This document shows, piece by piece, positions 8,170 through 33,938 of a DNA stretch of 64,000 nt. The notes below the pieces were generated by a model, which did not search any database, was not told where the DNA came from, and saw nothing but the letters and a program-made list of their open reading frames with translations. Positions within the stretch are counted from its first letter, which is position 1; every line of letters begins with the position of its first letter. A program made the position numbers and the translations under genes. The stretch comes from Lytechinus pictus (taxonomy: Eukaryota): NCBI RefSeq assembly GCF_037042905.1, contig NC_087245.1, positions 10,294,001-10,358,000 on the forward strand, written 5' to 3'.

Positions 8170-8310
8170 GGGGTATCGTGGTCTAGTGGTTGAGGCACCG
8201 GCATTTTAAGCGGGAGGCCCGGGTTCGATTCCCGGCAGAGACATTTTCTCGGCTTCACCAATAATTGTTCCACAGGTAGTAGCCCTCGGAAACCTTGATT
8301 AAGCTACGCC
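8170..8310 (+). mobile_element. tRNA-derived SINE head
   Basis: A-box TGGTCTAGTGG (8179-8189), B-box GGTTCGATTCC (8222-8232) and T-arm CCGGG/CCCGG are present. The acceptor and anticodon stems do not close. Confidence 0.75.
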
Positions 8311-8374
8311 TACCATTGTTCTCTTCATTCATTTCTCTCACAAAATATCTAAAGCTGTTGTACATGTATAATTT

Positions 8375-8462
8375 CACACACACACACACACACACACCCG
8401 CCCGCACACACACACCCTCACACACCCCCACACACCCTTACACACACATATATATATATATA
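8375..8462. repeat. (CA)n/(TA)n compound microsatellite
   Basis: Directly visible. Confidence 0.9.
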
Positions 8463-20400: not shown

Positions 20401-23400
20401 ATGATAGGTGATAATGACAATAGCAGTTTGAAAATTGCGCTATTCTATGAAATATATATATATCCTTTATTTCCATTGGGATTTAGACAGTACTATCTAC
20501 CCGTATAAAGGGGGTATAGACAGTGCTATTGACTGGGGATAAGTGTATAATGTACTATTTTGACATGATATATCACCAGGCGAACGACCACAATAACGAT
20601 GAACTTTTTGATGGAGTTCACTGAAATCTCATTAGTTCCCCAATTCACACACAGGATTTTAATTCTGTTACGTTTAAGTCGGTCACACAGCAGTATAAAT
20701 TAAATACCATTGGAAATGTATCAATTTGTCAACAATAAAGGAAACAATAAAGGAAAATAAAAGTTAATAATGAATTAAATTTTATATAGATTACTCCCTG
20801 CAGACTAGACTAAATAATTTGAGTAATTCTAACTTTAAAACCTTGCTTATCATGCAATCTGACAAAAATCTGTGCCAGTAGAACGGTTAGGGGAACCTGA
20901 ATTTTTCGAAATTTGGGGGGCACTCGAAAACGAGTGGCTTTCAGACTGACGAGATGAGTTGTTATAATAGGACATATTACATAATACTGCAAGAGAGAGT
21001 AGCGAGAGATCATTGAAAATAAAACAGGTTAGTCAAAGTAGATTTTAATCACGGGTTCAAATTTCAGAGAAAAATGGGCAATTATTAAAAAATAGGCAAA
21101 TATCAGAGGATAATATACCTACACGCTATGCAATTTTGTATAATTATTTACGTCTGGGCCGACATTTAACTCCATCATCCGAAAGACGTGACAAGGACTC
21201 GAACCTAGCAACTTCTCCCTGCAGCTTGGATTCCAGGTGCACTGCACAGTGCCCAAGTCTATTTACCGCTATCCTACCCCCCAAAAAAAACCCACAACAA
21301 CAAAAATCCAGTATAAGTTTGACTTATGAATTTGTGCTTCTTGGTGTGGTTGGTTTTGTGACTGCATTTCTGAGCGAAAGGTTTATGTTCTGTGGAACAT
21401 ACTGACTATTGATTGACACAATGTCTTGACATTTATTCCTATAATCCTTTAAGACCCATTCTTATGATACATCTCACCTGCCAGTTAATTTCCCAATGTG
21501 AATTGGGCCCTTGGGGCTCAAACAAAAACCGAGGATACCATTTAGGCACGTGAAAACCTTGTTTTAATTTATTCGCCCTCGCTAATGGGTCTCATTTTCG
21601 AGCCCATTATCTGGTGGGACCAGCGAGGCATCTAAGAACGATTCGACATTCAGATGTCAGATATAGATACAATGTAAGGAAGATTTATTGGATGTTATCT
21701 CTTTGTGAAGAAGACCGATTATCCAAGGGTGCTCGGTTGAGATTTATTTTATTTTTCTGTCAACATTGTGAGAGAGGATTCTTTTTTCAGACACTGATCG
21801 AGGATAAAAGAGTTCACGGACAACCTTACTTTACAGAGGCGCCGATGTTCAGTGCTCGAGGGATAGGGGTGGGGGAGGGGGCATCCCTGCGGTTAGCTGG
21901 TGTCAAAGGTTCATGGTTCAATATTCTACAGAATGCTTATAAACGAGATTTTTTTGTTACATATTATAGGCGCAGACGTGCATGGACCTAGTCTAGCGGT
22001 TTGTGGTCCACCGCTTGATGAACCGAGGCCAGGACAAGGATTCAAGACTTATCATAATCACAATGGTATACAGTATTCGTACAAAATGAGAAAAGGCAAC
22101 CAGAATGGATGAAAATAATCATTCAAGGTATATGTTTAGATTGTTGCATGTAACTAGATTGATGAACATGTAAAAGGACATGCATCACACAATGCAAACA
22201 GGACATCTCAATTCGTTTTTCATTTTCTGAAAATGTGGGTCCCATCTAATATTTTTAATACAAAGCAAAGAAGAATTCAGAGTTGATATTTATTTCATAT
22301 AGTAATGGAAATATAAATGAAGTATTTGCTATATCATATATGGACGCGACGCTGATAAAGGCAAGTTTTGTGAAATGTCATTATAACTAAAAATACAAAG
22401 ACAGACATAAAGGCTACATGAATGTACCAGAAAAGTCATCATCCCCTTTCTGTAAACCATCGCATGACAACCCTCAATAAGGAAGTGCGTCTACCCTCTC
22501 TGTCTTTTTAACCCTCTCTCATTCCAAAGTTATGATTCGTCTGTTATTTACCTAAATCGAACGATTTGATTTCCAAAACGAAATGACATCTTCATTTCTG
22601 TCTAATCCACGGCGTATGATTGATACTTCTGCCTTTACGGCCTCTCATCTTTTGTGAACCCTCTAAAAATGAAAAAAAAAATAGGAATCTGCTCCGTCGC
22701 CTTTTGTTAGCACGAAATTAGAGCTGACAACTCGGACAAGCCTCCTATTCAAGAGGGGAATAATAAATGCGTCTGCCCTTTCTTTCTCAATGTTTCATTC
22801 CAATATGCCTGGAGAGTGAGAGAGAGAGAAGAGAAATGAAAGAGGGGGGGGGGAGGGTGTATATCACTTCTGTTTCTCTTATGGTTGTTAAAATTGTCAC
22901 CGAAACATTAATCATGACTATTCGTGTGATTTTATATCACTCAAAGACCAATCAAAGAAAACAACAACAAAGAGTGGGGTCTTAACTTACTAAATTGGTT
23001 TATCAGATTATATTTAATCACAAGAGAGCAACGTACCAACCATAATTCCTTCATAAGAATTAAATTGCATGCCAATTTCTTACCAAATCACATGCTTATC
23101 ATGAGCGAGCTCATCGACCGAGAAAAAAAGGTGAGACTGTAATTTCATCATCAAATTAGACTATCTAGCCTAAGCATGGCAACTCTTATACATCTACAAA
23201 AAAATTTCAAGATCTTTTAATTTTAGTTGCCGATCAAACATTGAAAAAAAAAATGATTCGCGTCAGTATGTATACGCTTTTTTTCATCCTCAGAAGACAT
23301 TTTTTTTTTTTTTTTTGGGGGGGGGGGTACACTTAGGGTTGAGGCAAGGGCGGAAAACCGAACGTATTCTATTCGTGGTAACAGCAACAGTAAAGAGATC

Positions 23401-32635: not shown

Positions 32636-33938
32636 CAGTGGCGTACCGTGGGTCACGGCATTGGGGGGGCACCAGCAATTTTTTTTAGTCACTCAATACC
32701 CAGGTATACGAGCGCGAAGCGCAAGCTGAAAATTGTTTGTTGTTCAGACCCAAAAAATTGACAAATTACACACATTTTGTAATCATGATACGTACCTGTC
32801 TCACTAAGCAAACAATGTGAGCGCGAAGCGCGAGCTGATTTTTTTGGTATATATTGACCCCAAACAGGGACATTTTAAAGACATTTTTAAGGAATTCACG
32901 AAGAGCATACATATCTCACCATAGTCATCTAATGCGAGCGCCAAGCGCGTGTTGATTTTTTGGAATTCCATCGAAACACATGAAGTACTTTTTGTGGTCA
33001 TTGTAATCATGAACATGATACGTATCTCACTATTCAAATATCGCGCGTGCGAAGCGCGAGCTAAAAAATATTGGATATTCAGGCCTGAAAAGGGGCATCT
33101 TGTTTGTAAACTGGGTGTTGTGGTGTGCGCCTGTAATCCAAGCTATGTGGGGAAGTTACAAATTGTTGCAGAGGTTCGAGCCCTGGTCACGTCTTTCGGA
33201 TGGTGACGTTAAAGGTCGGTCCCAGACGTAAATAATCATATCTGATTGATGCACGTCTGACAAAACTAAAAAACACACACTCTTGTTTATAGGAATTCAT
33301 TGAGACCATATAGGCCTACGTATTTCACTAACAAAATAATGCGAAGGCGAACTGCTCGCTAAAAAATGATATTCAGACTAGAAAAAGAGACATTTCAAGA
33401 ACTGTTTTTTTAGGAATTCGTGAAGAGCAGACATATCTCATCAATTCACTAATGCGAACGTAAGCACGGACTGGAAATATTTTATTTTCAGACAATAAAA
33501 GGGGGCAATCATTTCAAGTAGTTATAAAAAAGAAGCCTATGTAACTACATAAAATAAGAAAAGCTCGAAGTGCGAGGAAATATATTTGGTATACATTGAC
33601 TTGAAGATGGGATGTTTTAGTACGATTTAATTCCATTGAACAAGATTTATCTCATTAAACAGAGAATGTGAGCACCAGAAATGATGAAAACATATAGGCC
33701 CTAAGTAAATTATGTTTCATAAAGTTATGAAAAATATTTCTTATGTAATATAATATATATGGTATAATATATAACATAATATAGTATGATGTAATATACA
33801 ATAATTTCTTTCCCCCCCACTACGTTTCTCGTTCTTTCACCCCTCTTTTTCTCAATTTCGCCCCGGTTTTTTCTCCAGCCGATGGGGGGGGGGGGGGCTA
33901 TACCCCCGTGTCCCCCCTCCCCCGTAGTTACACCACTG
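32636..33938. mobile_element. Non-autonomous hAT-like DNA transposon (1.3 kb) with internal ~110-120-bp repeats
   Basis: TIR CAGTGGCGTA / TACACCACTG. 8-bp TSD GGTTTATA (32628-32635) / GGTGTATA (33939-33946). GAGCGCGAAGCGCGAGCTG-like units recur at about 32709, 32817, 32934, 33042, 33341, 33454 and 33562. Confidence 0.85.
33106..33280 (+). mobile_element. SINE with 7SL RNA (SRP Alu-domain)-like head and Deu/Nin-like core
   Basis: Perfect TSD TCTTGTTT (33098-33105, 33281-33288). Head CTGGGTGTTGTGGTGTGCGCCTGTAATCCAAGCTA, B-box GGTTCGAGCC, core GTCTTTCGGATGGTGACGTTAAAGGTCGGTCCC, 3' hairpin CAGACGT..ACGTCTG, and tail AAAACTAAAAAACACACAC. Confidence 0.8.

Follow-up and report, generated by a model that had tools for sequence, protein, structure and literature searches.

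Independent births of short interspersed elements (SINEs) from 7SL RNA are extremely rare in comparison with the hundreds that started from tRNA, and each of them amounts to a natural experiment on the role of the 7SL piece. Those described belong to the supraprimates, one shrew mole and one hagfish only (PMC7245038; excerpts of PMC13023118). A 175-bp insert in the genome of a sea urchin, Lytechinus pictus, located within a stretch of 64,000 nucleotides (contig NC_087245.1, positions 10,294,001 to 10,358,000 of the forward strand; hereafter the window), raises the question of whether such an element has also arisen in an invertebrate and which part of 7SL it has kept. Positions 33106-33280 of the window very probably hold one slightly decayed copy of a young and abundant sea-urchin SINE family, a chimera of four parts: a minimal 7SL-derived head, a foreign B box, a core of the Nin/Deu type and a tail with a stem-loop and an (AC)n repeat. 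That the host is an invertebrate, as the original prediction had supposed from the letters alone, is confirmed by the genome itself, since it contains a Bindin gene and is thus echinoid. Pfam Bindin matches two adjacent exons with 236.7 and 53.1 bits and matches none of 14 control genomes; we take this family of sperm adhesion proteins to be specific to echinoids or echinoderms.

The insertion and its family

The insert is bordered on both sides by the same 8 bp, a perfect target-site duplication (TSD) that can be read directly from the sequence (Table 1). The host DNA is a degenerate array of units of about 110 bp, spaced by 109, 117 and 109 bp, while the spacing across the insert is 298 bp. 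This equals one unit of about 115 bp plus 183 bp, that is, the 175-bp insert and one 8-bp copy of the TSD, which supports a clean insertion. The proposed discrete insertion inside a repeat unit is therefore upheld by both the TSD and the array spacing. The accompanying description of the host as a DNA transposon is not confirmed: Tandem Repeats Finder reported no array in the host region and no convincing terminal inverted repeats of the array were found. When compared with a copy identical to the family consensus, the window copy differs at 6 of 171 positions, two of which are C-to-T changes at CpG sites in the head.

Table 1. Parts of the element, its flanks and a related copy in the window
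Feature	Position	Strand	Basis
Left TSD copy, TCTTGTTT	33098..33105	+	read directly; supported by array spacing
Four extra bases, GTAA, between TSD and first base of the SINE	33106..33109	+	direct reading; comparison with other copies
7SL-derived head, SINE nt 1-48: helices 2, 3 and 4 of the Alu domain and UGUAAU turn	33110..33157	+	Rfam Metazoa_SRP; alignments to own 7SL; shuffles
Linker and hairpin with B-box motif GGTTCGAGCCC (33173-33183), T-arm-like by motif only	33158..33190	+	read directly
Truncated Nin-DC/Deu-type core: 5' block GTCTTTCGGATG...GGTCCC, then ACGTAAA block overlapping the hairpin	33191..33237	+	unique motif; by-eye comparison with Nin consensus sequences
3' stem-loop CAGACGT...ACGTCTG with inner AUCA/UGAU stem; presumed recognition site for the reverse transcriptase of the partner LINE (long interspersed element)	33223..33259	+	two predicted folds; copy alignment
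A-rich stretch and short (AC)n tail	33260..33280	+	read directly; copy alignment
Right TSD copy, TCTTGTTT	33281..33288	+	read directly
Second copy from this SINE lineage, old; 75% identity to the consensus across SINE nt 3-131; tail missing or decayed	21139..21255	-	

The size of the family was estimated in the whole genome (812 Mb, 368 contigs). A DNA search with the element gave 1,680 first-look candidates and, besides the window copy, 40 scored matches, all of them 90-97% identical and spread over many contigs. With up to three mismatches allowed, a 34-mer from the core occurs at 788 + 782 = 1,570 places, and a 35-mer from the head that includes the SINE-specific CCAAGCTA at 646 + 610 = 1,256 places; the reversed patterns, used as controls, gave none in either case. 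The genome thus contains roughly 1,300-1,600 copies. The unit is about 171 nt long and its majority consensus 169 nt. Among the 29 best other copies, six equal the consensus exactly and most of the remaining ones are a single nucleotide off. The family is young, as the many copies identical to the consensus indicate; identity to the consensus runs from 75% to 100% in the examined sample, whose age distribution is biased because its members were picked by similarity or by pattern. The SINE lineage is far older than this young burst, since the decayed second copy in the window is only 75% identical to the consensus; its head is already of the CCAAGCT type.

The copies bear the usual marks of SINE mobility: they have TSDs, end in a tail of repeats at the 3' side and are in part truncated at the 5' side. 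Of the 62 full-length copies examined, 19 have an exact repeat of at least 7 nt on their two flanks, a few of these repeats being likely chance matches. In six copies the repeat abuts ACTGGG directly, which places the start of the element at the A of this motif; other copies have 1-7 extra bases at this junction, as the window copy does, so that the range across copies is 0-7. In one copy, L106, the TSD measures about 30 bp. Several copies are 5'-truncated, down to the last 30 nt or so, and the length of the (AC)n tail differs from copy to copy. Short and variable TSDs, 5' truncation and a microsatellite tail together imply LINE-mediated retroposition. The prediction would have failed had the element been single-copy; pattern counts, TSDs, truncations and tail all make it a member of a large family, and one that falls under the SINEBase description of a SINE as a short (<1 kb) interspersed repeat with at least 100 copies (excerpts of PMC3531059).

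Chimeric retrocopies of small RNAs formed by template switching are known (PMC7245038), and the copies might in principle be independent fusions of 7SL RNA with a SINE or LINE RNA instead of the offspring of a SINE master gene. Such an origin is next to inconceivable here. More than 1,200 copies have junctions that agree to the base, and there are subfamilies with common diagnostic changes, whereas independent chimeras would vary; the uniform junctions refute it.

Not all copies stand alone. A minority lies in head-to-tail tandem arrays with a spacing of about 170-190 bp (L016:1501-1863, L039:1500-1869, and contig 2 at 17634231, 17634402 and 17634571). Many others (L009, L015, L047, L072, L088, L096 and L099) share one flanking context of about 110 bp, with GGGTCTGGAACAAAGACTAC upstream and TATTCAATGTTGAAAAGATTGCGGGGTCT downstream. 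From the tandem copies and the common context, it seems that part of the family multiplied not by retroposition but through amplification in the form of a tandem or composite repeat. A distinct subfamily is represented by L114 and L115, on contigs 1 and 8 with the same flanks. Its head, CCAGCTAAC, is without the extra A and so nearer to 7SL; its B-box hairpin is different and perfectly paired (GATTCAG...GGTTCGAAA...CTGAATC), and its tail is the variant GTCTGTAAAAACC. A 5'-truncated copy with this tail variant sits in a segmental duplication of three loci (L107-L109).

The 7SL-derived head

The genome has seven full-length 7SL genes of its own, which score 272-283 bits with the Rfam model Metazoa_SRP. 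Six of them begin with ACCGGGCGTTGTGGCGTGCGCCTGTAATCC; the seventh, locus L037 on contig 12, begins with ACTGGG, as the SINE does. Nucleotides 1-30 of the family consensus are identical to L037 at all 30 positions, a stretch that takes in the species-specific bases GTTGTGG, and to the other six genes at 29 of 30; over nt 1-48 the identity to 7SL is 82%. Among the seven genes, only L037 shares T3 and A42 with the SINE. These two bases pair in helix 2; the other 7SL genes have C3-G42 there, against which U3-A42 is a compensatory change. Since the boxes upstream of L037 are those of the other 7SL genes, it looks like a real gene, and judging from the shared bases a 7SL gene of the L037 type is the most likely donor of the SINE head.

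The similarity remains visible in the window copy, which is identical to the host's own 7SL genes at 32 of 36 positions in a blastn alignment. The agreement with the species' own 7SL is closer than the one with human 7SL on which the original prediction had been built. When SINE nt 1-48 are aligned locally to these genes the score is 64-67, and dinucleotide shuffles give a mean of 20.5 +/- 3 with a maximum of 36, so that 0 of 500 reach it. In a search of 2.5 kb with all 4,227 Rfam families, Metazoa_SRP matches positions 33110-33167 with 27.2 bits (E 1.5e-4); four other copies score 29.5-34.9 bits. In every copy tested, what aligns is helices 2, 3 and 4 plus the UGUAAU turn; all other parts of the 299-position model are deleted. 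Both of the checks that the original prediction had named for its central claim of a 7SL-derived head, the Metazoa_SRP search and the alignment to the species' own 7SL, come out in its favour. The sequence comparisons thus indicate that nt 1-48 are copied from the host's own 7SL RNA and start at the same first base.

Details of the head bear this out to varying degrees. The ACU/AGU helix that had been predicted to close the domain by a compensatory change reappears in the covariance-model alignment. Within nt 1-30, three positions set the window copy apart from the own 7SL gene type that is commonest, all of them C-to-T at CpG. The earlier interpretation of such differences as CpG decay holds for the two that are private to the window copy (33116 and 33124) but not for the third, at position 3, which is found throughout the family.

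A head that is derived from a tRNA or some other sequence and merely converged on the 7SL 5' end is very improbable. The element does carry a tRNA-type B box, the mascRNA model aligns with the T-arm-like hairpin of the old copy, though very weakly (E 6.3), and all Nin/Deu SINEs described in the excerpts of PMC4758252, PMC4824008 and PMC3747384 have tRNA or 5S heads. Against this, convergence would have to account for the 30 of 30 identity to the host's own gene, species-specific bases included. No tRNA was found in the element by ARAGORN, nor any Rfam tRNA match at E<=10 in the window copy or E<=1 in other copies; the A and B boxes that make a SINE2 head recognisable as tRNA are reduced to a B box alone. 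A tRNA-headed parent SINE with the same core was considered and rejected, as a pattern of A box, B box and core occurs at two places only, both of them mutated copies of the present SINE. A pattern of A box plus B box alone matched at four places in the genome, of which one is tRNA-like, another is unrelated and two are copies of the SINE. These patterns were exact, so that diverged parents would escape them.

How far the reading of the insert as a young, Alu-like 7SL SINE may be carried is limited by several observations that count against it. Every SINE copy scores far below the Metazoa_SRP gathering score of 70, as is to be expected for a piece of only 48 nt. Beyond nt 48, none of four subfamilies (main, L039-, L031- and L114-type) has significant similarity to 7SL; because the homology stops there, the 3' half of the Alu domain is absent and only the 5' domain with helices 2-4 has been kept. 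Minimum free energy (MFE) folding of the whole RNA is no more stable than that of shuffles (z -0.17 and +0.42) and neither supports nor excludes an Alu fold, while the MFE fold of the isolated head has helices 3 and 4 and lacks helix 2. To these must be added the biased choice of the copies used for dating, the partner LINE that was sought without success and the chance that the family is already catalogued, both of which are treated below.

The Alu-domain fold of the original prediction therefore survives in part. The Rfam structure accommodates helices 2, 3 and 4 together with the UGUAAU turn, apart from a single non-pair that the own 7SL gene has as well, but the 3' part of 7SL is missing: for UCCUGGUCACGUCUUUC, the covariance-model alignment with the 7SL 3' end is poor and contains several non-pairs. 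Of what defines the SINE1 class, the element has a 5' part derived from the 7SL 5' end; it does not have the complete Alu domain in which the 3' part of 7SL is kept after a central deletion. Over nt 1-60, identity to 7SL is 44 of 61 columns (72%) for L031 and 47 of 63 (75%) for L037, above the at least 60% identity with tRNA, 5S rRNA or 7SL over at least 60 nt used by SINEBase (excerpts of PMC3531059), although most of this identity comes from nt 1-48 and what follows does not reach significance.

The B box, which had been thought to sit roughly where 7SL has its own, is present and lies inside a short hairpin; it is T-arm-like by its motif, with no tRNA model in support, and its surroundings have no significant similarity to 7SL. 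Three 7SL sources for the parts behind the head were tried and rejected. When the linker and B box are compared with 7SL nt 45-130 and nt 45-end, 29-484 of 500 dinucleotide shuffles reach the score. SINE nt ~49-100 align collinearly with nt ~138-181 in the 7SL S domain (34 matches in 49 columns), a score reached by 7 of 500 shuffles with two genes and 38 of 500 with a third; this match is treated as chance because it is weak and post hoc and because the same stretch fits published Nin domains better. The 3' flank of the 7SL genes is no better a source of the B-box hairpin, with 45-237 of 500 shuffles reaching the score in a test of the whole flank, and 249-1,192 of 2,000 when the B box was held fixed and the flanks were shuffled.

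This flank has a feature of its own. In six of the seven 7SL genes (L031-L036) a B-box-like GGTTCGAGTC, followed by (A)GGTGTC, lies 20-45 nt downstream of the terminator T-run. It forms a perfect CCTGG/CCAGG hairpin in three of the genes, is missing from L037 and may be a conserved downstream element of echinoid 7SL genes.

Core, 3' stem-loop and partner LINE

The Deu/Nin-like core, the 3' hairpin and the A/(AC)n tail are all found where the original prediction had put them. The core motif, GTCTTTCGGATGGTGACGTTAAA at 33191-33213, is unique, with 0 occurrences expected by chance. It was compared with the Nin sequences of Nucella, Littorina, Potamopyrgus and Lottia (Nla_Nin, Lsa_Nin_1, Pan_1-3 and Lottia_Nin; supplementary file 4 within the excerpts of PMC4758252). 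By eye, GTCTTTCGGATG is identical to the published Nin consensus at 12 of 12 positions, about 26 of 33 columns agree through GGTCCC, and the ACGTAAA block that follows corresponds to the portion of the Nin domain beyond the variable region. By this visual comparison the element has the homologous central domain that defines the Nin-DC/Deu superfamily. The tRNA- or 5S-derived head that goes with it in all described members is replaced by one derived from 7SL. The 3' stem-loop is invariant across the aligned copies.

A LINE that shares this 3' end was sought in the genome with tail and core patterns, with blastn-short and by comparison of LINE 3' untranslated regions (UTRs), and was not found. 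Tail and core patterns in which the five SINE-specific bases were forbidden gave 55, 29 and 79 places; those inspected are indel variants, other subfamilies and 5'-truncated copies, and at one of the loci (L073) there is no reverse-transcriptase open reading frame (ORF) upstream. The sole recurrent flank that is not SINE, upstream of L107-L109, was rejected as a LINE as it is a segmental duplication at three loci. In the sequences retrieved for the loci, blastn-short with the tail found only one related tail (L088:740-764), with no ORF upstream. A CR1-like LINE at L002:1193-3169 (-), consisting of an endonuclease remnant, the start of RVT_1 and a CR1-type C-terminal region, is interrupted by an antisense SINE copy at 1501-1671; it was discarded as the partner since its 3' UTR is unlike the SINE tail. 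Our best guess is nevertheless a partner of the CR1/L2 type. It rests on TSDs that are short or absent, on the combination of a hairpin with a microsatellite tail, and on the listing of SINE2-3_SP, a SINE of another sea urchin discussed below, with a CR1 partner.

The related tail at L088 deserves a separate mention. Within L088:740-795, a stem-loop (740-775) has the loop of the SINE tail on a stem with compensatory changes, AGGCG...CGCCT in place of AGACG...CGTCT, followed by (AAC)n; upstream of it there is neither a SINE head nor a SINE core. This tail may belong to a related SINE or else to the LINE lineage responsible for moving the 7SL-headed family.

Mobilization and relation to known SINEs

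From these parts, a path of amplification can be sketched. Initiation by RNA polymerase III (Pol III) would take place at the 7SL +1 base and rely on both the 7SL-derived 5' element and the B box some 60 nt downstream, and as the consensus has no run of four T the whole unit would be transcribable. Pol III transcription of the element is inferred in this way from its sequence. The predicted RNA would begin with the 7SL +1 base and end in the stem-loop and (AC)n tail, which a LINE reverse transcriptase of the stringent type, most likely of the CR1/L2 kind, would recognise. Target-primed reverse transcription would then copy the RNA into new sites and produce the short, variable TSDs and the 5'-truncated copies.

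Whether the head does more than promote transcription is the question on which the element may be most informative. In humans, the isolated 50-nt 5' domain of 7SL binds SRP9/14, proteins of the signal recognition particle. The piece kept by the sea-urchin SINE would correspond to this binding part and has stayed identical to 7SL in the master lineage, where 30 nt remain unchanged while old copies have decayed to 75-80%. For these two reasons we put at about even the chance that SRP9/14 attaches to the 5' Alu domain and that the RNA is thereby delivered to ribosomes engaged in the synthesis of LINE protein. A wider proposal can be made only tentatively: that the family is an independent birth of a 7SL-headed SINE, the first in an invertebrate, which kept nothing of the Alu domain except its 48-nt 5' part, that this 5' domain alone, as a platform for SRP9/14, is the unit under selection, and that docking also helps SINEs that depend on LINEs other than L1.

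The 7SL-like head could quite conceivably be an initiation or promoter module only, one that replaces the A-box half of a tRNA head without any docking to SRP9/14 or ribosomes and whose likeness to Alu is superficial. Just 48 nt of 7SL remain and the 3' strand of the Alu domain is not among them, the B box is no part of the 7SL-derived stretch, and MFE folding gives no sign of a specially stable structure. Moreover, heads are freely swapped among Nin/Deu SINEs, pieces of 5S rRNA and of LINE 5' UTRs among them (excerpts of PMC4758252). What such a module leaves unexplained is that the piece coincides exactly with the 5' domain, from helix 2 to helix 4 with the U-turn, and is not an arbitrary stretch, that its helix-2 pair is preserved by a compensatory change, that the master lineage still equals 7SL over 30 nt in the face of its decayed relatives, and that the same domain in isolation suffices for SRP9/14 binding in human 7SL. 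The sea-urchin SINE has the 5' domain on its own, detached from everything else in the Alu domain, so that SRP9/14 binding and mere promoter function become directly distinguishable by experiment, also with non-L1 LINE partners, and sea urchins are a tractable system for testing the role of the 7SL piece. If docking to SRP9/14 did operate with stringent, non-L1 LINEs, the "Alu trick" would extend to deuterostomes in general instead of being peculiar to vertebrates or to L1.

The closest known counterpart is SINE1-1_EBu (Ebu1-1) of the hagfish Eptatretus burgeri (Kojima 2020, PMC7245038). Like the sea-urchin SINE it is non-mammalian, has a head from its host's own 7SL, and joins a 7SL piece to parts of an older SINE; it is likewise young, with about 2,000 copies or fewer, and its LINE-type tail has a microsatellite and no poly(A), which implies a stringent, non-L1 partner in both cases. 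The two differ in what they took from 7SL. Ebu1-1 has about 96 nt of the 5' part and some 44 nt like the 3' end, from which a full Alu domain is possible, in contrast to nt 1-48 and a separate B-box hairpin in the sea urchin. The body of Ebu1-1 is derived from RTE, its known partner (PMC7245038), where the sea-urchin SINE has a Nin-DC/Deu block, and the hosts are a vertebrate and an echinoderm, respectively.

In Alu, FLAM and B1 of supraprimates and Urop of the shrew mole, the 5' end also starts with the 7SL +1 base, helices 2-4 are conserved along with the U-turn, and there is an internal promoter of the A/B type, a feature predicted for the sea-urchin SINE (excerpts of PMC13023118). These elements consist of 7SL only, its 5' and 3' parts brought together by a central deletion of about 183 nt, followed by poly(A), and are moved by L1 (same excerpts). 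Retention of both 7SL parts after a central deletion is common to Alu, B1, Urop and the hagfish SINE (PMC7245038; excerpts of PMC13023118). The sea-urchin SINE, which has no 7SL 3' part and whose head is followed by a B-box hairpin of foreign origin, then by a Nin core and last by the stem-loop/(AC)n tail, is unlike all of the mammalian ones. Tu type II of tree shrews and GarnAlu of the bushbaby resemble it as chimeras of modules derived from 7SL and from tRNA SINEs; in them, whole monomers that descend from the one supraprimate SINE1 ancestor have been fused, as opposed to one hybrid head of independent origin (PMC7245038). Among these natural experiments the sea-urchin case would be the most minimal, with helices 2-4 and the U-turn as its only 7SL parts; the B box attached to them is foreign, the core is of the Nin/Deu kind and the tail of the stringent type.

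Another relative comes from a sea urchin. SINE2-3_SP of Strongylocentrotus purpuratus has a central domain of the Deu/Nin type (excerpts of PMC5804259, PMC4824008 and PMC3747384). Compared by description only, it is listed with a CR1-type LINE partner and, in contrast to the 7SL head of the present SINE, with a tRNA-derived head (excerpts of PMC3747384). It is a possible donor of the body and tail of the present SINE.

These names raise the matter of novelty. It is rather unlikely, yet a real prospect, that the family has been catalogued before, for instance under a SINE2-n_SP name in Repbase or among the families that Dfam builds automatically, and that its head was classed there as tRNA-type or unknown; only the 7SL origin would then be new. 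SINE2-1 to SINE2-8_SP were named early for sea urchin (excerpts of PMC4824008 and PMC3747384), a family of about 1,500 copies is hard to overlook, and SINE2-3_SP is itself a Deu/Nin SINE of sea urchin (excerpts of PMC5804259 and PMC4824008). Against an entry that recognised the element for what it is speak the tRNA head under which SINE2-3_SP is listed, and the fact that neither a Repbase curator in 2020 (PMC7245038) nor, in the excerpts available, the SINEBase authors in 2026 (PMC13023118) know of a 7SL SINE beyond supraprimates, shrew mole and hagfish. Full-text literature searches returned no report of a 7SL-derived SINE in an echinoderm or in any invertebrate. The family would thus be the first 7SL-headed SINE outside vertebrates, with a hybrid promoter and a Nin core, whose consensus may already be in Repbase or Dfam under a tRNA-type name. 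Owing to its youth it may also serve as a presence/absence marker in echinoids.

Two minor observations concern the neighbourhood of the 7SL genes and a further SINE in the window. In the 7SL cluster on contig 10, a diverged copy of the family (84-87% identical to the consensus) lies about 37 nt upstream of the 7SL +1 base in three of the seven genes (L031:875-1460, L035:1292-1464 and L036:1313-1464). It sits between a CCCTCAATA(C/G)GACAATAAA box and an ATAT.TCCTTAATTTCGC box, which are contiguous in L033 and L034, and L031 has two such box-plus-SINE units 413 bp apart. As all four upstream copies have the same 5' flank, they go back to a single insertion, duplicated later along with the 7SL genes. 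Finally, positions 8173-8400 (+) of the window begin with a tRNA-like head, which scores 37.2 bits with the Rfam tRNA model (above its gathering score) and is not called by ARAGORN, and continue with about 130 nt and a long (AC)n tract. This is probably an ordinary copy of a tRNA-derived SINE that shares the (AC)n type of tail with the 7SL-headed family.

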